In this document: positions 1,597 through 39,744 of the stretch, piece after piece | How positions within the stretch are numbered: position 1 is the stretch's first letter | Layout: the number at the start of each line of letters is the position of its first letter | Source of the DNA: Planctomycetota bacterium | GTDB taxonomy: Bacteria > Planctomycetota > Planctomycetia > Pirellulales > PLA5 | Direction: 5' to 3' | Assembly: GCA_029259895.1 (NCBI GenBank) | Contig: JAJDEG010000123.1 | Coordinates: forward strand, 1-52,027 | Length of the DNA: 52,027 bases | Notes under the pieces: model-generated | What the model was told of the DNA's origin: nothing | Database searches by the model: none | What the model saw: only the letters and a program-made list of their open reading frames with translations | Program-made: the position numbers and the translations under genes

Positions 1597-2250
1597 TCAA
1601 GCCTCACGCCTTCGTTGGACGAGGGCGGCGAGCTTGTCGACGACCTCCTCGGGTGTGAGGCCGTCGGTGCGAACTTCGATGGCGTCGGGGGCCGGGACGA
1701 GGGGGCCGACGGTGCGGGTGGCGTCGCTGGCGTCGCGGTCGTTTTGTTGGGCTAGGACTTCGTCGAAGTCGATCGTTTCGCCGCGGGCGAGGAGGTCGGC
1801 GTGGCGGCGGCGGGCGCGTTCTTCGGCGCTGGCGGTGAGGAAGATTTTGCACTCGGCATTGGGGAAAGCGACCGTGCCTTGGTCGCGGCCTTCGGTGACA
1901 AAGTCGGCGGCGGCGACGACGCGCTGCTGGAGGGCGACGAGGTGCGCTCGGACTTGGGGATTGCCTGCGGTGTGGCGGGTGAGGCGGGTGACTTCGACGG
2001 TGCGGATGGCGGCCGTGACGTCCTCACCGTCGAGCAGGACGCGCTCGGCCGTGACGTCGATGTTGGCGGCATTGGCGGCGTCGGCGACGGCTTGGGCGTC
2101 GTTCCAGTCGACGCCGCGGCGATGGGCGGCCAGCGCGGCGGCGCGATACATCGCGCCAGTGTCGAGGAAGCGGAAGCCGAGACGCTCGGCGAGCCGCCGC
2201 GCGACGACGCTTTTACCGGCACCGGCGGGTCCGTCGATGGTGACGATCAT
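1597..2250 (-). CDS. cmk: Cytidylate kinase
   Basis: IVTIDGPAGAGKS, LDTGAMYRA, EGRDQGT and FLTASAEERARRR motifs. Confidence 0.97.
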   Translation of the reverse strand: MIVTIDGPAGAGKSVVARRLAERLGFRFLDTGAMYRAAALAAHRRGVDWNDAQAVADAANAANIDVTAERVLLDGEDVTAAIRTVEVTRLTRHTAGNPQVRAHLVALQQRVVAAADFVTEGRDQGTVAFPNAECKIFLTASAEERARRRHADLLARGETIDFDEVLAQQNDRDASDATRTVGPLVPAPDAIEVRTDGLTPEEVVDKLAALVQRRREA

Positions 2251-30115: not shown

Positions 30116-31228
30116 CTACAGCAGATTAACGACCTTGTCGGCCAGACCCTTTTCGCCCAACACGACGTTGAGCTTCGACGCCGTGGCGATCTTCTCGAGG
30201 ACTTCCAGTTCCTTGAGCCGCATCAGCGTCGGACTTTCGGCCAGCAGCCGGGCCGTGTTGGCCTGGCTGCGCATGGCGGCCGTTTCCTCGCGACGGGCGA
30301 TGAGGTTCGCCTCGGCGACCTTCTTGGCCTCCGTGACGCGGTTCATCAGGTCCTTCATTTCGCCCGGCAGGATCACGTCGCGGATGCCGACCGAGATCAG
30401 TTCGATGCCGAGCGCGTGCGCCCGGCCGCGAACCGCTTCGGCTAACTCCGCCGCGACTGCGTCCTTGTCGACGAGGAAGGCGTCCAACTCGCGAGCGCCG
30501 ATCACCGCCCGCAAGGCAAGCTGCGCCTCGCGGTACAGCGCCTGCTGAGCGTTCTCGGCGACCGTCACGGCCAACCGCGCGTCGACGACGCGGTAGTTCA
30601 CCACGGCGTTGACGCGAAGCGTGACCTTGTCGGCCGTCATGATGTCCTGGCCCGCGATGTCGATCACCGCTTCACGCATGTCCTCCTGGACGAACGTGAC
30701 TTGCGCCACGTTCTTCCAGAAGGCGTAGCGGCCCGGCGGCAGCGTCTCGACGTAGCGGCCGTCGATGAGCAGCACGCCCTGATGGTGCGGCTCGACCGTG
30801 CCGATCTCCAGCACGCGGTCCGCCATCGACGAACGCGTGATCGTCTGCAGCGCGTTGTGCTCGAACCGCACGCGACGCGCGTCGACCACTTCGGACTTCA
30901 CCTCGCGGACGCCGGTCCAATACGCATACAAGCCCGGCGGCAGCACGTGACTGAAGCGGCCGTCGATCCACACGAGCGCGCGCTCGTTGTCCTTCAGGTC
31001 GAGCACGGTCGCGCGGCCCGCCAACGCGCTCGACTTGACGATCACGTCGAGCTTCACATGGACGAACCACGGATCGCGCTGCGACACGACTTCCACGCGG
31101 AGCTTGCCGAGCGGGTCGAACATCCAGTAGCAGCCCGGCGCGACGAGTCCGACGAACTCGTCGTCGCGGAACCGCAGGCCGATCTCGTAGCTGCGAATCG
31201 TGATGCGGTGGAACAACATGAAATACAT
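30116..31228 (-). CDS. Slipin family (SPFH/band-7) protein
   Basis: Repeated LPPG.Y.(F/Y)W beta units; GQDIMTADKVTLRVN, GIRDVILPGEMK and RREETAAMRSQANTARLL..PTLMRLKELE motifs; AAGGAG SD. Confidence 0.92.
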   Translation of the reverse strand: MYFMLFHRITIRSYEIGLRFRDDEFVGLVAPGCYWMFDPLGKLRVEVVSQRDPWFVHVKLDVIVKSSALAGRATVLDLKDNERALVWIDGRFSHVLPPGLYAYWTGVREVKSEVVDARRVRFEHNALQTITRSSMADRVLEIGTVEPHHQGVLLIDGRYVETLPPGRYAFWKNVAQVTFVQEDMREAVIDIAGQDIMTADKVTLRVNAVVNYRVVDARLAVTVAENAQQALYREAQLALRAVIGARELDAFLVDKDAVAAELAEAVRGRAHALGIELISVGIRDVILPGEMKDLMNRVTEAKKVAEANLIARREETAAMRSQANTARLLAESPTLMRLKELEVLEKIATASKLNVVLGEKGLADKVVNLL

Positions 31229-31339
31229 TGATCGGTCTCCTTCTTTCTCGATTTTTTTCTATCTGCTCAGCTACTATCTGTCACACGCGTCACCGTGGTT
31301 GCAGAAGGAGTACGACATTCGCGGCAACGCGCTGGTTCA

Positions 31340-31721
31340 CAAAAAATGCCCGCGGGCGATGAATCGTGTTCGCCGGTCGCGCGAGTTCGTGCGGAGTGCG
31401 GTTGAGCATCGCGGCGACTGGTGGTCGAGCGGCTTGGCGGCGAGCGTTGCAAGAAGCAATTGCTTCCCGCGCAACTCGGCGCTTGGCCGACTTTTCCGGC
31501 AGTGCAGCGACGCGGTATCCGCGCACTTCAGGGCACTACGCTCGTGCTGCCGTTGGCGAACGCGCACAACGCCTCGACGCAACGCACGCGCCAGTTCACA
31601 ACTGGCACGGCGTCGGTTTCGTCGTTCGCACGCGCCGCCGCCGGCTGACCTGCAAATCGTTCATCGCCGTTGGGCGACGGTTCGTGCTTTTGGGGCACGT
31701 GGAGCCGATGGTTCGCATCGG
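31340..31721 (-). ncRNA. Candidate structured RNA between the tRNA-like element and slipin
   Basis: Dense hairpins (GCCGATG/CATCGGC, CGTGC/GCACG, GCCAGTT/AACTGGC, TCGGC/GCCGA), a long-range GGCGATGAA/TTCATCGCC pair and no convincing ORF. Confidence 0.4.
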
Positions 31722-31794
31722 CGAGTGGTGCGGGATTCGAACCCACTACAGCCAGATTCATGGTCTGGTGCTCTATCCACTGAGCTAACCACAG
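31722..31794 (-). ncRNA. tRNA-like element (Arg-ACG-like body, loop CC-ATG-AA, 5-bp acceptor stem)
   Basis: GTGGT TAGCTCAGTGGATAGAGCA CCAGA CCATGAA TCTGG CTGTA GTGGG TTCGAAT CCCGC ACCAC. Confidence 0.7.
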
Positions 31795-31949
31795 GGGGTG
31801 CATCGCGGCCTTCGTCATATTCCACTCGCGGAACACGAATCGCTAACCGTCCGTAGATCGGAGCGACGCGCGCCGCTGGCCCAGCCGCGAAATACCTTGC
31901 TTGAAAATCGTTGCGTGATGTCGGCACGTTAGCACCGCACCACGCAAAA

Positions 31950-32021
31950 AGACGCCGGTGGGAGTCGAACCCACTTTGAACCGCTTTGCAGGCGGTCGCC
32001 TCGCCGTCTGGCTCCAGCGTC
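31950..32021 (-). tRNA. tRNA-Cys(GCA)
   Basis: GACGCTG/CGGCGTC acceptor, ACCGC-CTGCAAA-GCGGT, GGTTCGACTCC, U73. Confidence 0.9.
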
Positions 32022-32095
32022 GTGACCTCGCTCGCCGTTACCGGTGAGCGAGGATAGCTTTCATTCTCTAAAAGTAGTGGTCGCGATTGACGCCA

Positions 32096-32263
32096 TCAAA
32101 AACGGCCTGCCTTCATGCAGCACTTCTTGAATCGCTTGCCGCTGCCGCACGGACACATGTCGTTTCGGCCGAGCTTTTCTTCGAGTTGCTTGTCGCCATG
32201 TACGATTCGCACGCCGCGCTTGACGTGCGTTTCGGATGGGAGGCCCTTACGCCGTTTACTCAT
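32096..32263 (-). CDS. Small SEC-C metal-binding motif protein (core frame; possibly extended at both ends by +1 frameshifts)
   Basis: MSKRRKG...[21 protein letters not shown]. Confidence 0.85.
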
Positions 32264-32306
32264 CGTCTCGAAAGCAGGACTGATCTTCTTGTTCGACCTC
32301 GCACAT
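32256..32306 (-). CDS. 16-aa upstream ORF ([16 protein letters not shown]) overlapping the SEC-C start
   Basis: GGAGGT 5 nt before the ATG; its stop overlaps the SEC-C ATG (ATG-AG-TAA); contains TTT-CGA. Confidence 0.55.
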
Positions 32307-32350
32307 GGCACACCTCCATCGTGGAAAACCTCGTTGCTTCCAACAATCAG

Positions 32351-32424
32351 CGTCCTCGCCAGGAGTCGAACCTGGCCCTCGACCTTCGCAGGGTCGCGTG
32401 CAACATCCGGCACACCCCGAGGAC
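32351..32424 (-). tRNA. tRNA-Arg(GCG)
   Basis: GTCCTCG/CGAGGAC, CGACC-CTGCGAA-GGTCG, CCAGG-TTCGACT-CCTGG. Confidence 0.85.
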
Positions 32425-32514
32425 TTGAACAGGGGTTGGGGGTCGGGGACTAGGGGCTGGGAAAACGCGACAACGTTCTATGCCCTCCCGCCTCTGGCCT
32501 CCGGCCTGCTCGAG

Positions 32515-32585
32515 CGCCTCGCCGAGGAGTCGAACCTCGTCTTGCAGTTTCGAAGACTGCCGTGCGTCCATCACACTCGCAAGGC
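32515..32585 (-). tRNA. tRNA-Arg(TCG)
   Basis: GCCTTGC/GCGAGGC, GCAGT-CTTCGAA-ACTGC, CGAGG-TTCGACT-CCTCG. Confidence 0.85.
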
Positions 32586-32975
32586 CGACCACCGTTGCCG
32601 CGGGCATCGCCGTCGACGACGAGCAACTGCGGCGACTTGATGCTCGTCGACGTAGACAATCCTTCCCGGCTCGTAGGTTCGCTGCATTTGAACGGGCACA
32701 CCGGCGTCGCGCACCGCGGCGACTAGCTCCCACATCGTCGCGATCATCCGCCGCGAACCGCAGCGAAACCAGAACAGCGCTCGCCAACCGTGGCCGCCGA
32801 GATCCGGCATGTGCAGATGTTCGCCGAACCAGTCAAGCGTCTCGCCAATCCAATCGCGCAGGACTTCGTCGACGTGCGCGGACGTTTCGACTTGTCCCGC
32901 CGCCGCGAATATTCCCAGTGGCCGCGCCGTGTTTTCGCACCGCAGCGGCGTTTGAAATCGCAAGTAAGTTTCCAT
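32571..32975 (-). CDS. Hypothetical protein within the tRNA array
   Basis: METYLRF...LDWFGEHL..P...ALFWFR...MWELVAAVRDAGVPV....PGRIVYVDEHQVAAV looks protein-like. The stop falls inside tRNA-Arg(TCG). Confidence 0.65.
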   Translation of the reverse strand: METYLRFQTPLRCENTARPLGIFAAAGQVETSAHVDEVLRDWIGETLDWFGEHLHMPDLGGHGWRALFWFRCGSRRMIATMWELVAAVRDAGVPVQMQRTYEPGRIVYVDEHQVAAVARRRRRCPRQRWSALRV

Positions 32976-33052
32976 CGCATTGGCTTTCGCACTGGCTTTC
33001 GCATTGTCGCGCTTCGCTTCATGACCGAAATGTCGTTGATTCAATTAGACAA

Positions 33053-33141
33053 AGCCGACGACTGGATTCGCACCAGCATGAGCCGCCGTCTTTCCGTGTT
33101 GCCGTCAAGACCGGCGGTTTTCTACGTCGAGCCACGTCGGC
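33053..33141 (-). ncRNA. tRNA-like element with an extended anticodon arm and no canonical anticodon loop
   Basis: Perfect GCCGACG/CGTCGGC acceptor; GCTGG-TGCGAAT-CCAGT T-arm; CCGCC(G)GTCTT/AAGACGGCGG arm with a 14-nt loop. Confidence 0.6.
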
Positions 33142-33144
33142 AAG

Positions 33145-33215
33145 CACGAGCGCGAGGATTCGAACCCCGTGCGCCGGCTTTGGAGACCGGCTGCTCTCCC
33201 AGGAGCACACTCGTG
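33145..33215 (-). tRNA. tRNA-Trp(CCA)
   Basis: ACGAGTG/CGCTCGT, CCGGT-CTCCAAA-GCCGG, GGTTCGAATCC, G73; short D loop. Confidence 0.8.
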
Positions 33216-33256
33216 TTTCGCTCAACGACAGCCAGCCGCCGGGCGACGCTTCTACA

Positions 33257-33850
33257 TTACGATTGCAGCGGAACATTCCAGTACGTTTCGCTGACGAACT
33301 TCGACCAGCTTTCACTCGCCACGTCGTGCCGGGCGTATAGGGGCTTCCATGTCGGCCGCACCGGCGGCTTGCGCAGCTTCATGCCGGCCTCGCGCGGCGT
33401 GCGGTCGGCCTTGCGGTGGTTGCACGCGATGCACGCCAGCACGCAGTTCGTCCACGACGACGCGCCGCCTTTCGCACGCGGTGTAACGTGGTCGATGGTC
33501 AACTCGCCGCCGCCGGGCTGAGCGCCGCAGTATTGGCAGGTCCAGTGGTCCCGCTTGAATACGTTGCGCCGGCTGAAGCTGACCGCCGCGTCGGGCAACC
33601 GGTCGTACTCGGCCAGCACAATCACCTCCGGCACGCGCAGCCGTCGCCGCACCGCGCGGATGAACGCATCGCCGTCGCGCGGCGCGATCCGCGACCAATC
33701 GGCCCAGGTGTAAAGCTGGTAAGTCTCCGGATCGACCACCCGCGCCGCCTCGTTCCACACCAGCACCAGCGCCCGGGCGACAGTCGCTACGTTCACCGGC
33801 TGCCAGTTGCGGTTGAGGATCAGCGCCGGGCGCTGTAGTGTACGAGTCAT
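33257..33850 (-). CDS. HNH endonuclease (McrA-like)
   Basis: LILNRNWQPV, FSRRNVFKRDHWTCQYCG, LTIDHVTPRAKGG.SSWTNCVLAC..CN.RKADRTP motifs; ATG at 33850. Confidence 0.93.
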   Translation of the reverse strand: MTRTLQRPALILNRNWQPVNVATVARALVLVWNEAARVVDPETYQLYTWADWSRIAPRDGDAFIRAVRRRLRVPEVIVLAEYDRLPDAAVSFSRRNVFKRDHWTCQYCGAQPGGGELTIDHVTPRAKGGASSWTNCVLACIACNHRKADRTPREAGMKLRKPPVRPTWKPLYARHDVASESWSKFVSETYWNVPLQS

Positions 33851-33879
33851 GGTTCTTGATCCAACTTGGAGTCGCGATT

Positions 33880-34281
33880 GTGGTTGAAGAGCGAAAAGTT
33901 GACGTTTTTTGGACGGTCCGCAAGGGTCAGCGTCATTCAATTTCGTTGACGGAAAACGAAGCCTGGAAGTATCTTGAATTGCGTGCTTATTTCGGCGAGG
34001 AACCGAACGGATGGTCAGTCGATAAAACACGTGAAGTGGTCCCCGTTGTTTACGGAGAGATCGTTGAAGGCGAGGGAACAATGGTGGAGTTGGATGATGA
34101 CGGCAATGAAACGGTTTGTCGGGCGTACATTGCGTTAAGCGTATTCTGGAACTGCCCACACTGCGGCGAACGGCACAATGTCAGCCTCTACGATAACCCT
34201 ATCGAACAAACGGCCGAGGCATCGAATCCGTCGATCTGGGTTTGTGAACGGGGCGAAGGGCATTCGATTGTTCATTGGTAG
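33880..34281 (+). CDS. Hypothetical protein with a CPHC motif, antisense to the array
   Basis: GGAG then GTG at 33880; acidic 133-aa ORF with visibly lower GC than its neighbours. Confidence 0.55.
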   Translation: MVEERKVDVFWTVRKGQRHSISLTENEAWKYLELRAYFGEEPNGWSVDKTREVVPVVYGEIVEGEGTMVELDDDGNETVCRAYIALSVFWNCPHCGERHNVSLYDNPIEQTAEASNPSIWVCERGEGHSIVHW

Positions 34282-34332
34282 CCGTTGGATTGCGACGCGC
34301 GCATCCGACGGCGTTCCAATCTGAACATTGAG

Positions 34333-34407
34333 GGTATCTGACCGGACTCGAACCGGTACCTCTTGGTTCACAGCCAAGTGTGCAGAAACCGCTACACCAC
34401 AGACACC
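34333..34407 (-). tRNA. tRNA-His(GTG)
   Basis: G-1:C73, GTGTCTG/CAGATAC, CTTGG-CTGTGAA-CCAAG. Confidence 0.9.
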
Positions 34408-34412
34408 ACATC

Positions 34413-34491
34413 AGGCTATAGGCTGTAGGCTGTAGGTCAGAGAAGGCGTGCGTCTGCAACCTAAAATCCTACGGCCTACAGCCTCCGGCCT
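34413..34491. repeat. Heptamer inverted-repeat spacer (AGGCTGT/ACAGCCT)
   Basis: aggctat aggctgt aggctgt agg ... cctacgg cctacag cctccgg cct. Confidence 0.75.
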
Positions 34492-34499
34492 ATTCTCAG

Positions 34500-34586
34500 C
34501 GGAAAGCAAGGGAGTCGAACCCTCATCTCGACGAGCGAGAACCGCGTTAGCACCGCGGCCCGGCCAACCGTATCCGGCTACCTTCC
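34500..34586 (-). tRNA. tRNA-Ser(GCT)
   Basis: GGAAGGT/GCTTTCC, CCGCG-GTGCTAA-CGCGG, long variable arm, G73. Confidence 0.88.
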
Positions 34587-34596
34587 GAGTTCGGCC

Positions 34597-35020
34597 GTAG
34601 GGGTTTAGGCTTTAGGTATTTAGGGAATGAGTATGCGAGACCATACGAAACTTCGGGCGTTCGAATTGGCGGATCGGCTCGCAATCGCGGTCTACAGGTC
34701 CACGGCGACGTTTCCTCGTGAGGAGCAGTTCGGCCTCACTTCGCAAATGCGCCGCGCGGCGGTTTCTGTCCCTTCCAACATCGTTGAAGGATGTGCGAGA
34801 GACTCCAGATCGGACTATGTCCGGTTTCTGGGTATCGCGTTCGGTTCCCTTCGAGAGTTGGATTACCAAGCGTCGCTCGCTCATCGCCTCGGCTATCTTG
34901 CCGGTTACGAATCGCTCGCGGCGCTCATGACCGAAACGTCCAAAGTTCTCGCTGCGTTGATCCGCTCTCTTCGTTCTCCCAAAACCTAACTGCCTAAACT
35001 CCTACAGCCTAAACTCCTAC
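34597..35020. mobile_element. IVS-like cassette: four-helix-bundle gene flanked by inverted TTTAGG/CCTAAA repeats
   Basis: Left end GTAGGGGTTTAGGC versus right end GCCTAAACTCCTAC (13/14 inverted match), with further TTTAGG/CCTAA units inside. Confidence 0.6.
34627..34989 (+). CDS. Four helix bundle protein (23S rRNA intervening-sequence protein family)
   Basis: FPREEQFGLTSQMRRAAVSVPSNIVEG and RFLGIAFGSLREL motifs. The start may be 34633. Confidence 0.93.
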   Translation: MSMRDHTKLRAFELADRLAIAVYRSTATFPREEQFGLTSQMRRAAVSVPSNIVEGCARDSRSDYVRFLGIAFGSLRELDYQASLAHRLGYLAGYESLAALMTETSKVLAALIRSLRSPKT

Positions 35021-35025
35021 CGCAG

Positions 35026-35096
35026 TGGACCGCCGGGGAGTCGAACCCCGATCCCCTGGTTGCAAGCCAGGTATCTTTCCGTTGGACGAGCAGCCC
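35026..35096 (-). tRNA. tRNA-Ala(TGC)
   Basis: G3:U70, CCTGG-CTTGCAA-CCAGG, A73. Confidence 0.9.
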
Positions 35097-35112
35097 GATT
35101 CTTCTGCTTCAA

Positions 35113-35183
35113 GGGTTCGTCCGGGAACTGAACCCGGCCTTCCGCCTTACCACGGCGGCGTGCAGCCGAAACACCTACAGACC
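35113..35183 (-). tRNA. tRNA-Thr(GGT), degenerate
   Basis: CCGCC-GTGGTAA-GGCGG; C:A mismatch in the acceptor stem; T loop TTCAGTT. Confidence 0.7.
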
Positions 35184-35193
35184 GTTCTTCGAG

Positions 35194-35266
35194 TGATCCC
35201 GGATGGAGTCGAACCATCGCTCTCCTGCTTGTCACGCAGGCGTCTTCGCCGTTGGACCACGGGATC
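35194..35266 (-). tRNA. tRNA-Val(GAC)
   Basis: GATCCCG/CGGGATC, CCTGC-GTGACAA-GCAGG, A73. Confidence 0.88.
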
Positions 35267-35275
35267 AGATACAAG

Positions 35276-35351
35276 TGACCGGAGTGGGCGTCGAACCCAC
35301 AAAATCACGAGGCTCTCGACCTCGTCGCTTTACCAGTTTGCGTACCCGGTC
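35276..35351 (-). tRNA. tRNA-Leu(GAG), short variable region, C33
   Basis: GACCGGG/TCCGGTC, CGAGG-TCGAGAG-CCTCG, variable region TGATTTT. Confidence 0.8.
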
Positions 35352-35443
35352 GGAACACGCCGGAGGCTGTAGACGGGAGGCCGGAGGAAAACTCGCAATT
35401 GCGTTCCTCAAGTCTCCGGCCTCAAGCCTCGCGTCTCTTCAAG

Positions 35444-35512
35444 TGGCAGGCTCGGGTGTCGCACCCGACGGTCCGGGCTTATGAGGCCCAGTTGAGCACT
35501 GGCTCGCCTGCG
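35444..35512 (-). tRNA. tRNA-Met(CAT)-like, non-canonical
   Basis: C1:C72 mismatch, GCAGGC/GCCTGC, TGGGC-CTCATAA-GCCCG, reduced D arm, T loop TGCGACA. Confidence 0.65.
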
Positions 35513-35516
35513 TCGT

Positions 35517-35620
35517 GGGAGGCTTGAGGGATGAGGCTTGAGGCGAGAGGAATGCAGTACAGCGTCTTCCTCAAGTCTCAAGTCTCAAGTCTCAAGCCTC
35601 ACGCCTCACGCCTCACGCCT
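35517..35620. repeat. Heptamer inverted-repeat spacer (GAGGCTT/AAGCCTC)
   Basis: gaggctt gagggat gaggctt gaggcga ... ctcaagt x3, ctcaagc, ctcacgc x3. Similar spacers at 32430-32508, 35361-35430, 35715-35807, 35886-35979 and 37515-37581. Confidence 0.8.
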
Positions 35621-35627
35621 TTTGCAG

Positions 35628-35714
35628 TGGGTCGTGAAGGAATTGAACCTCTCGTCGTCCACCTCACTTGTTTGCTGACAACGGCTTTACAGGCCGCCGT
35701 GAGGAACACGACCC
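35628..35714 (-). tRNA. tRNA-Tyr(GTA) lacking a D arm
   Basis: GGGTCGT/ACGACCC, GCGGC-CTGTAAA-GCCGT, long variable region, GG-TTCAATT-CC, A73. Confidence 0.7.
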
Positions 35715-35809
35715 GGAGGAGCTTTGAGTCCTGAGGTTTGAGGCGTGAGGGTTATAGAACCAACGGGCGATGCCTTCGGAACCTCAAGCCTCGTCCCTCA
35801 AGCCTCCAG

Positions 35810-35883
35810 TGGCACAGGCGGGAGTCGAACCCGCAGTCACCAAGGTTTGAGCTTGGCCGCTTTGCCGGTTTGCGTACCGTGCC
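35810..35883 (-). tRNA. tRNA-Leu(CAA), short variable loop
   Basis: GGCACGG/CTGTGCC, CCAAG-CTCAAAC-CTTGG, variable loop TGACT. Confidence 0.85.
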
Positions 35884-35981
35884 GTGGGAAGGCGCGAGGC
35901 TTGAGGCATGGGGCGTGAGGATCGTGCTGATTTCCATTTCCTCCTCAAGCCTCATCCCTCGAGCCTCAAGCCTACTCCCAG

Positions 35982-36056
35982 CGTCCCCGACGGGATTTGA
36001 ACCCGTGACCTCCACCGTGACAGGGTGGCGAGCACTCCAGGCTGCTCCACGAGGAC
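35982..36056 (-). tRNA. tRNA-Asp(GTC)
   Basis: GTCCTCG/CGGGGAC, CCACC-CTGTCAC-GGTGG, G73. Confidence 0.93.
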
Positions 36057-36071
36057 GATTCAATTTTGCAG

Positions 36072-36145
36072 TGGCTCAGGTGGGACTCGAACCCACAGCA
36101 TCTCTCGTTCTAAGCGAGAGTGGTCTGCCGATTGCCTACCGAGCC
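36072..36145 (-). tRNA. tRNA-Leu(TAG), short variable loop
   Basis: GGCTCGG/CTGAGCC, TCTCG-CTTAGAA-CGAGA. Confidence 0.85.
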
Positions 36146-36155
36146 GAAAGGTCAG

Positions 36156-36229
36156 TGCCCAGGGCCGGAGTCGAACCGGCAACCGCGTGGGTTTAAGCCG
36201 CGCCGCTCTACCGATTGGCGTACCTGGGC
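36156..36229 (-). tRNA. tRNA-Leu(TAA), short variable loop
   Basis: GCCCAGG/CCTGGGC, CGCGG-CTTAAAC-CCACG (one mismatch). Confidence 0.82.
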
Positions 36230-36232
36230 GAG

Positions 36233-36304
36233 TGGTCCCGGATGGACTCGAACCATCGTTTCCTGGGTGTAGGCCAGGAGTCGTTGCCGCTGGACCACGG
36301 GACT
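36233..36304 (-). tRNA. tRNA-Val(TAC), C33 and A1:C72
   Basis: CCTGG-CCTACAC-CCAGG, GATGG-TTCGAGT-CCATC. Confidence 0.8.
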
Positions 36305-36325
36305 GTTTGCATGATCGAGTCGAAG

Positions 36326-36400
36326 TTCCGGGGGTTGGAATCGAACCAACGGCTTTCTGATTCAGAGTCAGGCGTCACTACCAGCAGCAACTGCCCCGGA
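36326..36400 (-). tRNA. tRNA-Gln(CTG)
   Basis: TCCGGGG/CCCCGGA (U1-A72), CTGA-CTCTGAA-TCAG. Confidence 0.85.
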
Positions 36401-36436
36401 ATGCTGTTCGTGCTGACATGACTCGTCGCACGAAGG

Positions 36437-36507
36437 CTCGGGGAGATGGATTCGAACCACCACTGCCTGGTTCAAAGCCAGGCGGCCTGCCGTTAGCCGA
36501 TCCCCGA
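36437..36507 (-). tRNA. tRNA-Gln(TTG)
   Basis: TCGGGGA/TCCCCGA, CCTGG-CTTTGAA-CCAGG. Confidence 0.9.
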
Positions 36508-36517
36508 ATATCGTGAA

Positions 36518-36589
36518 AGTGCCCTGCGAGAGTCGAACTCGCCTGTCCAGCTTGGAAGGCTGGCGCCTCTGCCGCTCGGCCAAGGGCAC
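36518..36589 (-). tRNA. tRNA-Gly(TCC)
   Basis: GTGCCCT/AGGGCAC, CCAGC-CTTCCAA-GCTGG, U73. Confidence 0.88.
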
Positions 36590-36609
36590 GTCACTACGAA
36601 AGCTAGAGG

Positions 36610-36693
36610 CGGAAGGAGAGGGAGTCGAACCCTCAAGGCTCATCGCTCGACTGTTTTCGAAACAGTTGCCGTCGCCCATCGGCTTGCCCTTCC
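36610..36693 (-). tRNA. tRNA-Ser(CGA)
   Basis: GGAAGGG/TCCTTCC, ACTGT-TTCGAAA-ACAGT, long variable arm, G73. Confidence 0.9.
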
Positions 36694-36707
36694 GTATTCA
36701 TCAAAAG

Positions 36708-36782
36708 CTGCGGCGGCAGGAATCGAACCTGCGACTGGGCGCTTAACAGGCGCCTGCCGGTACCAGCACCGGCCCCACCGCA
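36708..36782 (-). tRNA. tRNA-Asn(GTT)
   Basis: TGCGGTG/CGCCGCA, GGCGC-CTGTTAA-GCGCC, G73. Confidence 0.88.
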
Positions 36783-36788
36783 ATCGAG

Positions 36789-36863
36789 TCGGCGTAGTTG
36801 GATTCGAACCAACGATCTCCTGCTCCCGAAGCAGGCGGATTTGCCAGGCTATCCCATACGCCG
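36789..36863 (-). tRNA. tRNA-Pro(CGG)
   Basis: CGGCGTA/TACGCCG, CCTGC-TTCGGGA-GCAGG, A73. Confidence 0.92.
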
Positions 36864-36871
36864 GTCGTCAA

Positions 36872-36942
36872 AGCGCCCAGCGGGAGTCGAACCCGCGCTT
36901 CCGCCTCGGCAAGGCAGCAGGCTGCCGCTACATCATGGGCGC
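36872..36942 (-). tRNA. tRNA-Gly(GCC)
   Basis: GCGCCCA/TGGGCGC, CTGCC-TTGCCGA-GGCGG, U73; weak D stem. Confidence 0.85.
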
Positions 36943-36973
36943 GCTTGGAGAAGTAAATTGTCAAAGAACTGAA

Positions 36974-37045
36974 AGCACTGGGCCGGACTCGAACCGGCGT
37001 TACCGCGTTACGAACGCGGAGTCCTTGCCTCTGGACGACCAGTGC
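36974..37045 (-). tRNA. tRNA-Thr(CGT)
   Basis: GCACTGG/CCAGTGC, CCGCG-TTCGTAA-CGCGG. Confidence 0.9.
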
Positions 37046-37076
37046 TTGCCAACGTCTTGTCGGTGTGACTTATCAG

Positions 37077-37149
37077 TGGGACCAGAAGGACTCGAACCTT
37101 CACCGACCTGGTTAAGAGCCAGGCATGCTGCCGCTAACACTTTGATCCC
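37077..37149 (-). tRNA. tRNA-Lys(CTT)
   Basis: GGGATCA/TGGTCCC, CCTGG-CTCTTAA-CCAGG. Confidence 0.9.
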
Positions 37150-37186
37150 GTTCAATCTCTGCTTGTCGTTTCCGCCTCTCGCGCGA

Positions 37187-37259
37187 TCGGCGCGGAAGGA
37201 GTCGAACCTTCGACCTGTGTCTTATAAGGACACGGCTCTCACCGCTGAGCTACGCGCCG
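37187..37259 (-). tRNA. tRNA-Ile(TAT)
   Basis: CGGCGCG/CGCGCCG, canonical D and T arms, GTGTC-CTTATAA-GACAC, A73. Confidence 0.9.
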
Positions 37260-37405
37260 GCACTGAAGCCAGACCAATCTGGCCGAATGGGGCCGAAGGG
37301 AGTCGAACCCTTACCATTCCGCTTAAAAGGCGGAAGCGCTACCGTTACGCCACGACCCCGAAAATGGATCGGACGTATGCGTTTGAGCCGCGTCGTTTGT
37401 CGCAT
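37250..37405 (-). CDS. Candidate 51-aa Arg-rich ORF reading through tRNA-Lys(TTT)
   Basis: AAGGAG-AACAACA-ATG CGA CAA ACG ACG CGG CTC AAA CGC ATA CGT ...; stops at the TAG in the 5' end of tRNA-Ile(TAT). Confidence 0.45.
   Translation of the reverse strand: MRQTTRLKRIRPIHFRGRGVTVALPPFKRNGKGSTPFGPIRPDWSGFSAGA
37288..37359 (-). tRNA. tRNA-Lys(TTT)
   Basis: GGGGTCG/CGGCCCC, TCCGC-CTTTTAA-GCGGA. Confidence 0.9.
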
Positions 37406-37438
37406 TGTTGTTCTCCTTGCGTTCTTTGCTCGCGCGAA

Positions 37439-37509
37439 TAGTCCGGGGTGGAGTTGAACCACCGCCGACGACGTATCAGATCGCCATGCTTCCGTTACAC
37501 CACCGGACA
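37439..37509 (-). tRNA. tRNA-Ile(GAT)
   Basis: GTCCGG/CCGGAC with U1:U72, GCGAT-CTGATAC-GTCGT. Confidence 0.8.
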
Positions 37510-37586
37510 GCAATCAGGCCGAAGGCCCAAGGCGGTGGGTCGACAATGCGTTTACTCGTGCGGCCTACCGCCTCCAGCCTGCTCAG

Positions 37587-37660
37587 CGGCTCGTATGGGA
37601 GTCGAACCCATCTCCCGGCCTTGAAAGGGCCGTATCCTCAAACCGATAGACGAACGAGCC
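37587..37660 (-). tRNA. tRNA-Glu(TTC)
   Basis: GGCTCGT/ACGAGCC, CGGCC-CTTTCAA-GGCCG, G73. Confidence 0.92.
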
Positions 37661-37687
37661 GAAATCTGCGCGCACACTGAGCGCAAG

Positions 37688-37759
37688 TGGGTCGGGAGGC
37701 GCTCGAATCCTCGTCTCCTGGTCTTCAACCAAGCGCTAAACCATCTCAGCTACCGACCC
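37688..37759 (-). tRNA. tRNA-Phe(GAA), non-canonical (G37, A53:G61)
   Basis: GGGTCGG/CCGACCC, CTTGG-TTGAAGA-CCAGG, T arm GAGGA-TTCGAGC-GCCTC. Confidence 0.78.
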
Positions 37760-37801
37760 ATCGTTTTGTTCCGGCATGGCTTCGCGCTCGCCAAGACCAA
37801 C

Positions 37802-37834
37802 AAAAAAAGGCCCGGCGTTGTAACGCCAGGCCTT
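37802..37834 (-). terminator. Attenuator terminator upstream of the first tRNA
   Basis: AAGGCCTGGCGT-TACA-ACGCCGGGCC followed by T7. Confidence 0.85.
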
Positions 37835-37859
37835 GAATTGCCTTTCGAGCCGAATTGCC

Positions 37860-37874
37860 GGCCGAGCGTCACAA
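37860..37874 (-). promoter_or_regulatory. Antiterminator strand containing the leader stop codon
   Basis: TTGTGACGCTCGGCC pairs 14/15 (2 GU) with GGCCTGGCGTTACAA, the terminator 5' arm plus loop (37818-37832). Confidence 0.75.
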
Positions 37875-37997
37875 GCGCAATGGATGCGCGGGGCTATTCC
37901 CTACGAGGCCATTCCGATAATCGGAACAGGCGGCTCGCAGCGCGGAATAACCCGCAACTATGCGTTCTTGGTTCGATCTCGGCCGTAAAAACAACAT
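37869..37997 (-). CDS. Candidate 42-aa leader peptide MLFLRPRSNQERIVAGYSALRAACSDYRNGLVGNSPAHPLRL
   Basis: GGAG 11 nt upstream; contains TTA, AGA, ATA, CGA and GTA codons; the stop lies within the antiterminator. Confidence 0.65.
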   Translation of the reverse strand: MLFLRPRSNQERIVAGYSALRAACSDYRNGLVGNSPAHPLRL

Positions 37998-38071
37998 TGA
38001 ACGAATCGCTCCATTCACAAAAGGTTCGTGAAACTAGCGGTCGCGATGCCACCGCGGCGTTTGTTAACCCT

Positions 38072-38101
38072 TTAGACGCCACCAAGAGACGCAAGGTTCA
38101 C
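38072..38101 (-). promoter_or_regulatory. ECF-sigma-type promoter of the tRNA array
   Basis: GTGAACC-N16-CGTCTAA, matching the general ECF pattern (GAAC -35, CGTC/TCTAA -10). Confidence 0.65.
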
Positions 38102-38286
38102 AGGGTTGATCCAAGTTTGCGCCAAATATTCCCGGCGAAGAAGCGTCGTGGCAAGCAACGACACAACGCACGGACCGTTTCGGATCGCGACAGCGCTCAC
38201 TTGCGGCCCGGCACGATGCGCCATTACGATGGCTCGCGAAACGACTTTTGGCCGTGGCGTTCTTTATCTCAAGTGTTTGGATGGCG

Positions 38287-39744
38287 ATGAGTTACCCCAA
38301 GATCGCACAGTTTAAGGACGTGGCGGCATTTCGCGCGCGGCTGGACGAGCTTGGCTTGTCGATGCCCGTCGACGACGCGGCACAGTCGGCCGCGGAGGGT
38401 TCGCCGCTGGCCGCGCCGCTGTCGGTTGGTTCATCGCTCTGCGGCAGTTCATTCCGCGTGGGCAATCGCTGGTGCATTCATCCGATGGAGGGTTGGGATG
38501 CGAATCGCGATGGTTCGCCGTCGGAATTCACGCTGCGGCGTTGGCGAAATTTTGGGGCCAGCGGAGCCAAGCTCATCTGGGGCGGCGAAGCGGCTGCCGT
38601 GCAGCACGACGGAAGAGCGAATCCGCGGCAGACGCTGGCAACGGAAGAGAACTCTCGCGGGCTGGCTCAATTGCGCGAAACACTGGTCGACGAACATGCA
38701 GCGCGGTTCGGCGATACGACGGATCTGCTCGTGGGCCTGCAATTGACGCATAGCGGTCGATATTCTCGGCCGGACGGACCGCCGGCTCCACGAATCGCAT
38801 ATCACCACCCGTTGCTCGACGTGAAGATGGGCATCGATCCGCGCGACGCGAACGCCGTGTGGTCCGACGACGACTTGGAACGCCTAGTCGACCGATACGT
38901 TGCCGCGGCCGTGTTGGCCGAGCAAGCGGGGTATCAATTCGTCGACGTGAAGGCGTGCCACGGTTATCTGTTGCATGAGTTTCTGAGCGCGCGGCGAAGG
39001 CCGGGAAGATTCGGCGGCGACTTCGCGGGACGGACGCGATTGATGACGACGATTATCGAGCGAATTCGCGACGAACTGCCGCGGCTACTGATCGGCGTGC
39101 GGCTGAGCGTATTCGACACGGCGCCGTTCGCGACGAGTCGCGACGTAGGGCGGCCAATGCCGTTTGTTGAGCTGTTGCCCTACGACTGCGGCTTCGGCGT
39201 CGATGCGAACGATCCGCTGACGATGGATTTGACGGAGCCGATTGCGCTGCTCGTGAAATTAAGAGAGCTAGGCGTGGCAATGGTCAATCTTTCGGCCGGC
39301 AGCCCGTACTACAATCCACACGTGCAGCGGCCGGCGATCTTTCCGCCGAGCGACGGCTATCGGCCGCCGGAAGACCCGTTGGTCGGTGTGGCGCGGCAGA
39401 TCGACGCGGCCCGGAGATGCAAGGAGGCCGTAAGCGATTTGCCGATGGTCGGCACGGGCTACACGTATCTGCAGGAATATCTGCCGCACGTGGCCCAGGC
39501 CGCGGTGCGGGCAGGTTGGATCGACAGCGTTGGACTGGGCCGCATGGTCCTATCGTATCCGCGATTACCGGCCGACGTACTGTCGGGCAGCGCAACGACG
39601 CGCAAGCTCGTGTGCCGCACATTCAGCGATTGCACGACCGCGCCGCGCAACGGAATCGTCTCGGGCTGTTACCCGCTCGATGCTTTTTACAAGCGCTTGC
39701 CAGAGGCCGAGACGCTACGGCGCGCGAAGCAGAGCGATACTTGA
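38287..39744 (+). CDS. NADH:flavin oxidoreductase (old yellow enzyme family)
   Basis: NRWCIHPMEGWD, GLQLTHSGR, VDVKACHGYLLHEFLS and RPGRFGG motifs; C-terminal CRTFSDCT. Confidence 0.9.
   Translation: MSYPKIAQFKDVAAFRARLDELGLSMPVDDAAQSAAEGSPLAAPLSVGSSLCGSSFRVGNRWCIHPMEGWDANRDGSPSEFTLRRWRNFGASGAKLIWGGEAAAVQHDGRANPRQTLATEENSRGLAQLRETLVDEHAARFGDTTDLLVGLQLTHSGRYSRPDGPPAPRIAYHHPLLDVKMGIDPRDANAVWSDDDLERLVDRYVAAAVLAEQAGYQFVDVKACHGYLLHEFLSARRRPGRFGGDFAGRTRLMTTIIERIRDELPRLLIGVRLSVFDTAPFATSRDVGRPMPFVELLPYDCGFGVDANDPLTMDLTEPIALLVKLRELGVAMVNLSAGSPYYNPHVQRPAIFPPSDGYRPPEDPLVGVARQIDAARRCKEAVSDLPMVGTGYTYLQEYLPHVAQAAVRAGWIDSVGLGRMVLSYPRLPADVLSGSATTRKLVCRTFSDCTTAPRNGIVSGCYPLDAFYKRLPEAETLRRAKQSDT

Follow-up and report, generated by a model that had tools for sequence, protein, structure and literature searches.

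How the transcription of a long array of transfer RNA (tRNA) genes is controlled is the question raised by a stretch of 52,027 nucleotides (nt) from a bacterium of the phylum Planctomycetota (order Pirellulales; contig JAJDEG010000123.1 of assembly GCA_029259895.1), which is called the window below. On its reverse strand, 30 tRNA genes run from tRNA-Phe(gaa) to tRNA-His(atg) (37759-31720, detected by ARAGORN), and they are preceded by a leader with a short open reading frame (ORF) and an intrinsic terminator. We consider it likely that this leader is a ribosome-mediated (leader-peptide) transcription attenuator which gates the array and the protein genes embedded in it. The array would then probably be switched on only when ribosomes falter. 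The architecture of the putative attenuator is strongly supported by cross-genome comparison; the direction of the switch and its signal are what we infer from the geometry of the leader and from analogy to known systems.

According to the tRNA census, the genome possesses 81 tRNA genes, of which 30 belong to the array and the other 51, all outside the array run, make up a full set. Twenty-six of the 30 array anticodons also occur among the outside tRNA genes. Judged by these gene counts, the array is supernumerary and of the L-array type. The anticodons restricted to the array are Arg(gcg), Arg(tcg), His(atg) and Ile(tat), located at 31720-31794, 32350-32585 and 37187-37259; they are unusual for a bacterial housekeeping set.

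The leader, like all features described here unless stated otherwise, lies on the reverse strand. A Shine-Dalgarno (SD)-like GGAG (38012-38009) is located 11 nt 5' of the leader ATG at 37997. The ORF (37997-37869) comprises 42 sense codons, encoding the peptide MLFLRPRSNQERIVAGYSALRAACSDYRNGLVGNSPAHPLRL, and ends with a TGA at 37871-37869. Within this region, the four-segment layout of a classical attenuator can be predicted. Segment 1, CGGCCGAG (37985-37978), corresponds to codons 5-7 and forms the 5' strand of helix 1:2. Segment 2 is the 15-mer TTGTGACGCTCGGCC (37874-37860), which contains the TGA and the next 9 nt and whose alternative partners are segment 1 and segment 3; the strand just 3' of the TGA, CTCGGCCG (37866-37859), is the part of the segment 2 region that pairs with segment 1. 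Segment 3, GGCCTGGCGTTACAA (37832-37818), represents the 5' arm and loop of the terminator and pairs with segment 2 in the antiterminator conformer, while segment 4 is composed of the terminator 3' arm and the U-run. The intrinsic terminator (3:4; 37834-37802) has the form AAGGCCTGGCG/TTACAA/CGCCGGGCCTT with 12 pairs in the stem-loop (37834-37807) and is followed by seven T (37808-37802). It is the best among eight terminator-like sites revealed by a consensus scan of positions 31000-39000. A 27-nt spacer separates the 15-mer from the terminator hairpin, and antiparallel pairing of TTGTGACGCTCGGCC with GGCCTGGCGTTACAA yields 12 Watson-Crick pairs, two G-U pairs and one mismatch. The GGAG, the ORF, the TGA within the 15-mer and the 14/15 pairing had been reported in a first-pass annotation of the window and were confirmed base for base, and the terminator, which had been placed about 40 nt ahead of tRNA-Phe, was measured to end 42 nt before the start of this gene (37759). 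The element that had been missed is segment 1, which pairs and covaries with the strand just 3' of the TGA. Adding it turns the proposed switch into a full 1:2 / 2:3 / 3:4 attenuator of the trp type.

Folding of the region 37795-38015 resulted in a free energy of -100.3 kcal/mol (z = -5.3, 200 shuffles). In the minimum free energy (MFE) fold as well as in the RNAalifold consensus, CGGCCGAG pairs with CTCGGCCG, and the resulting helix 1:2 closes a domain which holds a long central hairpin within the ORF, GGGTTATTCC...GGGAATAGCCCC (37953-37890 in the MFE fold), whose tip is variable in length. In an alignment of 94 leader sequences, 87.8% of the cells of helix 1:2 are paired and one of its pairs covaries (AU 33, GC 28, GU 10, other 23). 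For the terminator the proportion amounts to 96.9% with two covarying pairs (AU 53 / GC 28 and GC 71 / AU 18). The antiterminator 2:3 reaches 86.6%, compared to at most 46% when the partner is slid. The observed covariation score was attained by none of 500 shuffles. Thus, the covariation that the first-pass annotation had suggested looking for exists in 1:2 and 3:4. In 2:3 it is weak because segment 2 hardly varies: over the first ten homologues found by similarity, most of its columns are invariant. The terminator loop CACAA is conserved and complementary to TTGTG of segment 2, a property that a plain terminator does not need. Taken from these alignments, three predicted, mutually exclusive helices, 1:2, 2:3 and 3:4, are conserved.

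The element is widespread in the order. A DNA similarity search against 41 genomes of the same order matched ten of them, solely across positions 38013-37760 of the window, which is exactly the leader, and most of the matches sit just 5' of a tRNA-Phe heading an array. When one genome per species was searched for a degenerate 21-nt pattern derived from the 15-mer region, at least 120 loci emerged. Among the matches listed, 88 copies passed a filter demanding a hairpin below -10 kcal/mol and a run of five T within 110 nt, and the remaining 32 are either fortuitous matches from other phyla or copies cut by contig ends. The titles of the 88 records mostly denote metagenome-assembled genomes (MAGs) of Pirellulales, Pirellulaceae, Planctomycetaceae and Thermoguttaceae. 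With a covariance model trained on the 94 leaders, the element was detected in 73 of the 151 genomes sampled from the order (54 of 119 if only high-quality genomes are counted, with one to four copies each) and in only 5 of 150 genomes from the rest of the phylum. No match to the 21-nt pattern was obtained in viral contigs. Since the arrangement is conserved across many genomes, it goes beyond chance. The first-pass annotation had made its reading depend on conservation of a stop codon within the antiterminator, and in the relatives this arrangement is present along with the leader ORF and the terminator in front of tRNA genes, in agreement with the mutually exclusive trp/his-type geometry it had proposed. 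Two modules composed of leader, terminator and tRNA genes occur in records titled Candidatus Entotheonella (L067, with a leader peptide of only 23 amino acids) and Candidatus Nealsonbacteria (L071); their placement could be due to horizontal transfer or mis-binning.

Several properties of the leader ORF point to a coding function. In all ten leaders found by similarity, the frame from ATG to TGA is open (31-42 amino acids) and the TGA lies within segment 2; in their alignment, the ATG and most columns of the 15-mer are invariant. An in-frame ORF starting with ATG and ending at the conserved TGA is present in 81 of the 88 copies among the matches listed. The pattern-found copies fall into approximately 19 ORF length classes between 66 and 141 nt, all multiples of three, with some of the shortest ORFs reflecting the choice of a downstream ATG. 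All length changes map to the tip of the central hairpin, in multiples of three, and an RNA by itself would not be expected to change in steps of three nucleotides. Stop codons on the sense strand number 0 in frame (a zero by selection) versus 143 and 47 for the two alternative frames. Conserved columns of Ser, Ala, Gly and Pro show wobble at third positions, as does the H-P-L motif (CAT/CAC, CCN, TTG/CTG/CTA), and in one leader (L005) synonymous changes keep the sequence ...PPHPLRL yet destroy the local hairpin. The ratio of nonsynonymous to synonymous polymorphism (pN/pS) is 0.72 in frame versus 0.96 and 1.02 in the shifted frames. Furthermore, the SD-like words AGGA, GGAG or GAGG occur at positions -16 to -4 in 36 of 78 leaders, whereas two control windows contain them in 4 and 6 of 78. 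From these sequence comparisons we infer translation of the ORF. The central part of the peptide has diverged with hardly any restraint; its poor conservation fits a leader whose translation counts more than its product.

On this basis, the attenuator may work as follows. A transcript would start at a dedicated promoter-like site, and the 42-codon ORF would come first. A ribosome keeping pace with the polymerase would reach the UGA and cover segment 2, so that 3:4 can fold and the polymerase terminates 42 nt short of tRNA-Phe. If no ribosome is present, 1:2 would form, leaving 3:4 free, and termination would again be the outcome. A ribosome held on the first codons would, on the other hand, cover segment 1. 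Segment 2 would then pair with segment 3 as soon as the latter emerges, no terminator would arise, and the array would be transcribed. Such an early hold might be caused by a shortage of the tRNA that reads the rare TTA in fourth position, by a translation inhibitor or by any other block of early elongation. The median duplex energies are -13.2 kcal/mol for 1:2, -19.7 for 2:3 and -21.4 for the terminator. When codons 1-8 were masked, 2:3 formed in 73 of 93 prefixes ending at the terminator loop, and to this extent the folding of alternative conformers, which had been recommended in the first-pass annotation, agrees with the proposed switch.

A number of observations weigh against this interpretation. 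Unmasked prefixes formed 1:2 in only 47 of 93 cases and in 33 of 93 already contained 2:3; in the window's own prefix, 1:2 was absent while 2:3 was present with 8 of its 15 pairs. With segment 1 masked, the full-length MFE structure was still the terminator in 73 of 93 sequences, which means that the decision of the switch would have to be kinetic, as it is in known attenuators. No leader contains a run of codons for a single amino acid, unlike the trp and his leaders, which places the element outside the amino-acid subclass of leader-peptide attenuators; it resembles the inhibitor-responsive subclass. In a search of sequencing runs, the whole stretch was found in one DNA run while RNA runs shared only 0.05-0.07 with it. 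Two RNA runs cover, as contigs, only tRNA parts of relatives at 85-99% likeness. One run (X3) slightly covers 37834-37895, another (X2) covers the region 5' of the ATG from 38029 on, and among the pieces listed there is none on the leader ORF or the terminator; these runs speak neither for nor against the attenuator. Related genomes are also non-independent samples, which limits all conservation counts given above.

Further objections concern the ORF. Seven of the 88 listed copies are exceptional, one having a GTG start (L070), one being truncated at its 5' end (L126) and five being frameshifted. In the latter (L032, L052, L055, L095 and L123), the shift lies between the conserved ATG and TGA; they could be assembly indel errors or decaying copies. 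Three of them, L032, L052 and L055, come from MAGs sharing the 'MFD' naming. The contrast in pN/pS between the frames is modest, the peptide is weakly conserved except for its C-terminus, and about half of the leaders are devoid of a four-base SD word. Moreover, the search pattern fixes LRL-TGA-C, and the conservation of these letters in the 88-copy set is therefore circular. Because the last codons are fixed by the pattern, 40 weaker matches of the covariance model, which are independent of it, were examined as an ascertainment control. The model columns for start and stop are occupied by ATG and TGA in 27 of them, and all 27 ORFs are in frame and open, spread over 14 lengths between 72 and 159 nt. 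In another eight, the start is a few codons off or the alignment is displaced with the same TGA context at the end; by this looser count, 35 of the 40 matches have an ORF ending at a TGA in that context, and five have no such ORF. Divergent copies keep the position of the stop while the final residues vary (RL, RW, RM, RK, RR).

Can the same data be explained without a ribosome-controlled switch? It is improbable that the leader is a structured RNA of the riboswitch or protein-binding type whose helix 1:2 and central hairpin sense a ligand, protein or tRNA, the ORF being incidental or auxiliary. A non-coding element does not explain why the frame is kept over about 19 lengths, why the ATG is conserved and why SD words are enriched at the correct spacing, nor does it account for the synonymous variation of H-P-L, including the leader L005 in which the hairpin is destroyed and the peptide kept. 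Nevertheless, some features match this explanation, namely the very stable fold with its z-score of -5.3, the covariation of the closing helix, an inner pair of the central hairpin that switches from GC to CG in the alignment, and nucleotide columns that are kept while the residue varies, for example A-N-A at codon 13 for Ile, Lys or Arg. Competition between a P1-like helix and a terminator is typical of riboswitches, too. An Rfam scan of positions 37600-38400 with E-values up to 10 gave, apart from the tRNAs, no family match for the leader. The sub-threshold scores it returned were driven by the terminator (STnc240, 22.8 bits at a cut-off of 55; sau-63, 21.7 at 100; anti-hemB, 16.4 at 49.5) or, in the case of mir-326 (15.4 bits at a cut-off of 66), fell on tRNA-Glu as a chance match.

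It also appears unlikely that the ORF is an independent small-protein gene with its own terminator, whose peptide acts in trans by its C-terminal HPLRL while the array is expressed by constitutive leakage through the terminator and controlled at the promoter only. The peptide's middle, which diverges almost freely, the stop codon within a strand that can pair with either of two conserved partners and the terminator loop kept complementary to the segment 2 strand are hard to reconcile with such a gene. A protein search with the 42-residue peptide yielded no candidates of 23-74 amino acids, which is weak evidence since ORFs of this size are seldom called as genes, and we know of no convincing match of the peptide to arrest-peptide motifs. 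What this explanation can claim are the C-terminal residues kept in spite of synonymous changes, the conserved, dedicated promoter-like motif and the existence of leader peptides with a function in trans, such as peTrpL as far as it is described in the available part of PMC7298713. Finally, a chance ORF with chance complementarity beside an ordinary terminator draws on nothing more than the general frequency of short ORFs and hairpins in GC-rich DNA and on the fact that terminator-like sites in the region are no commoner than in shuffles (8 versus 8.7 expected), and it is already refuted by the occurrence of the module in 73 of 151 genomes of the order and at 88 public loci among the matches listed.

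For an attenuator, transcription of the array should depend on the terminator. This was surveyed at 81 loci with at least 300 nt of sequence past the TGA. A tRNA gene on the same strand follows the T-run within 350 nt at 75 of the 81 loci and within 60 nt at 59 of them; the median gap between T-run and first tRNA gene is 27 nt, and in 54 of the surveyed loci this gene is tRNA-Phe(gaa). Because the first tRNA gene is so near, there is no room for a separate promoter, and transcription of the array must hence pass the terminator. At two loci the module is naturally disrupted by transposase-like ORFs (named by eye), which are inserted between the leader terminator and tRNA-Phe in L066 (1.6 kb from leader to tRNA-Phe) and lie just past tRNA-Phe in L035.

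A possible start site of the transcript was recognized 76 nt 5' of the leader ATG, where the window contains the motif TGAACC-N16-CGTCTAA (38100-38073). A strict regular expression, GAAC[CT]-N14-19-CGTC[TC], is matched 55-119 nt 5' of the ATG in 61 of 77 homologous leaders, the family form of the motif being TGAACC-N15/16-CGTCTAA. In the whole genome, there are only 14 strict matches. We presume a similarity to ECF-sigma promoters, taking their consensus to be a -35 box with AAC and a -10 box with CGT at a spacing of about 16 nt. Of the 51 tRNA genes that do not belong to the array run, just one has a strict match (GAACC-N16-CGTCT) within 300 nt on its 5' side, and three more match a looser expression with a second box of less similarity. 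The idea that the motif is a general promoter of stable RNAs was rejected due to this single strict match. From its position and distribution, it looks like a dedicated promoter of the transcript comprising leader and array. The lone strict case outside the array, GAACC-N16-CGTCTAA, is located 127 nt 5' of tRNA-Ile(gat) on contig C422 of the same genome (G000; at about 16561, reverse strand).

To which signal the leader might respond can be approached by its codons. Compared to 1,659 long ORFs of the same genome, the codons TTA (1.5 per 1000 codons), AGA (1.4), ATA (2.4) and GTA (5.5) are rare, as claimed by the first-pass annotation, but its inclusion of CGA does not stand because this codon is used 11.8 times per 1000 and accounts for 14% of the Arg codons, and is thus not really rare. 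In the window's leader, TTA, AGA and ATA all lie within the first 13 codons, and the G+C content at third codon positions is 0.57 versus 0.76 in the genes of the genome. Over 84 leaders, TTA (7.3-fold) and ATA (5.7-fold) are the codons most over-represented in comparison to neighbouring long ORFs. The codon directly preceding segment 1, codon 4, is TTA, ATA or AAA in 42 of 82 leaders and TTA in the window. Given the usual footprint of a ribosome, one that waits at codon 4 would cover segment 1. Constraints on the RNA may contribute to the codon bias of the leader. In nearly all copies, the stop codon UGA has a C as its next base. UGA-C is a weak termination context in Escherichia coli, and it could prolong the stay of the ribosome on segment 2.

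It is conceivable, as a tentative proposal, that the leader functions as a homeostat for spare tRNAs, in which its sensor codons (above all TTA at codon 4, but also ATA) are read by the array's own tRNAs and the sensed product is a tRNA and not an amino acid. If such tRNAs were depleted, damaged or cleaved, be it by anticodon nucleases, phage attack, toxins or starvation, the ribosome would stall on segment 1. An antibiotic slowing early elongation would lead to the same stall. The backup tRNAs together with the HNH and SPFH genes described below would then be transcribed until decoding recovers. The array does contain the genes for tRNA-Leu(taa), tRNA-Ile(tat), tRNA-Arg(tcg) and tRNA-Val(tac) and would thus supply tRNAs for TTA, ATA, CGA and GTA as stated before; tRNA-Ile(UAU) is found in the array only. 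The feedback loop that the first-pass annotation had drawn from this supply gains from the enrichment of TTA and ATA in the leaders and from the presence of their tRNAs in the array. It loses by CGA not being rare, by the tRNA for AGA being encoded outside the array and by the existence of a dispersed tRNA-Leu(taa) gene. The general failure of translation that this annotation took as the signal would be suggested by geometry and analogy.

The mechanism proposed here belongs to a known class, ribosome-mediated transcription attenuation. A leader-ORF attenuator in front of tRNA arrays would be new, as full-text searches of the literature gave no description and no Rfam family matched. With the trp, his and phe attenuators, as far as they are covered by the available parts of PMC1183508 and PMC3082878, the leader shares a short ORF containing segment 1, a stop codon placed in such a way that the terminating ribosome covers segment 2, mutual exclusion of 1:2, 2:3 and 3:4, and an intrinsic terminator ahead of the regulated genes. 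It differs from them by the lack of a single-amino-acid codon run, by a longer ORF (31-52 codons) built around a large hairpin, by targets that are tRNAs instead of biosynthetic enzymes and by its host, a member of the Planctomycetota. The closest tested analogue in logic is bmrB-bmrCD of Bacillus subtilis, judging from the available part of PMC4191407. This attenuator, whose leader ORF likewise contains three alternative stem-loops, is induced by inhibitors of protein synthesis and thus reacts to a general inhibition of translation and not to a single amino acid; induction requires translation of the leader, and rare leader codons raise read-through. According to the same excerpts, however, its target is an ABC transporter and its terminator is situated within the bmrB coding region, whereas the planctomycete terminator lies past the stop codon and its putative target is a tRNA array.

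In terms of biology, the L-array (trn operon) of Anabaena sp. PCC 7120 is the closest system. Following the accounts available in part, this array is silent and induced by impaired translation (PMC8421152), and it is controlled at the promoter by the repressor TrcR binding to 9-nt repeats (PMC10272220, PMC8421152). Both arrays are long and supernumerary, stand beside a complete dispersed set of tRNA genes and have a linked HNH gene, but the planctomycete array is preceded by a leader ORF and a terminator. The portions available of PMC8421152 describe the linkage of an HNH gene to L-arrays in cyanobacteria and report L-arrays in several phyla including Planctomycetes; planctomycete clusters with tRNA-Ile(UAU) were noted earlier (PMC4807772, likewise in part). 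The terms leader, attenuat and terminator do not occur in the text of PMC8421152, nor do leader and attenuat in that of PMC4758250. Full-text searches found no attenuator or leader ORF before tRNA arrays; the supplements of PMC8421152, PMC4758250 and PMC4807772, which lay outside the scope, may list planctomycete arrays.

Several protein genes accompany the tRNA genes on the same strand. The HNH endonuclease gene (33257-33850; Pfam HNH, 5e-13) is located in the array between tRNA-His and tRNA-Trp. A gene for a Band_7/SPFH protein (30116-31228) lies just downstream of the last tRNA gene, and a 157-amino-acid protein without a Pfam family is encoded inside the array (32571-33044). An ORF of 105 codons ending in a SEC-C motif (32096-32413; Pfam, 7e-9) has a listed start that overlaps tRNA-Arg(gcg). 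Among the homologous loci, a gene of the HNH family follows the leader directly in L128 and, in fragments, in L121. Look-alikes of both the SPFH and the 157-amino-acid protein were encountered in the array of L081, and L047 contains an SPFH-like ORF; the two proteins may be co-transcribed cargo. In L086, an EF-Tu-like gene (391 amino acids, GHIDHGKTT motif) is situated approximately 2.0 kb past the leader TGA, after a leader-headed tRNA array. Far from the array, ARAGORN detected an unusually long tRNA-Ala(ggc) of 95 nt with the anticodon at position 38 (2028-2122, forward strand), which may reflect an intron, an insertion or a miscall.

Long supernumerary tRNA arrays are present in several phyla, and their purpose and control are largely open, Anabaena being the one studied case. 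If the attenuator proposed here is true, it would establish a direct molecular link between the performance of ribosomes and the supply of spare tRNAs, and leader-peptide attenuation would come to include genes that encode tRNAs. Mutants of the ATG, the rare codons and the helices would then offer a simple handle on when and why such arrays are used. Very few cis-regulatory RNAs are described from the phylum, to which the leader adds a widespread, conserved small ORF and a putative RNA switch.

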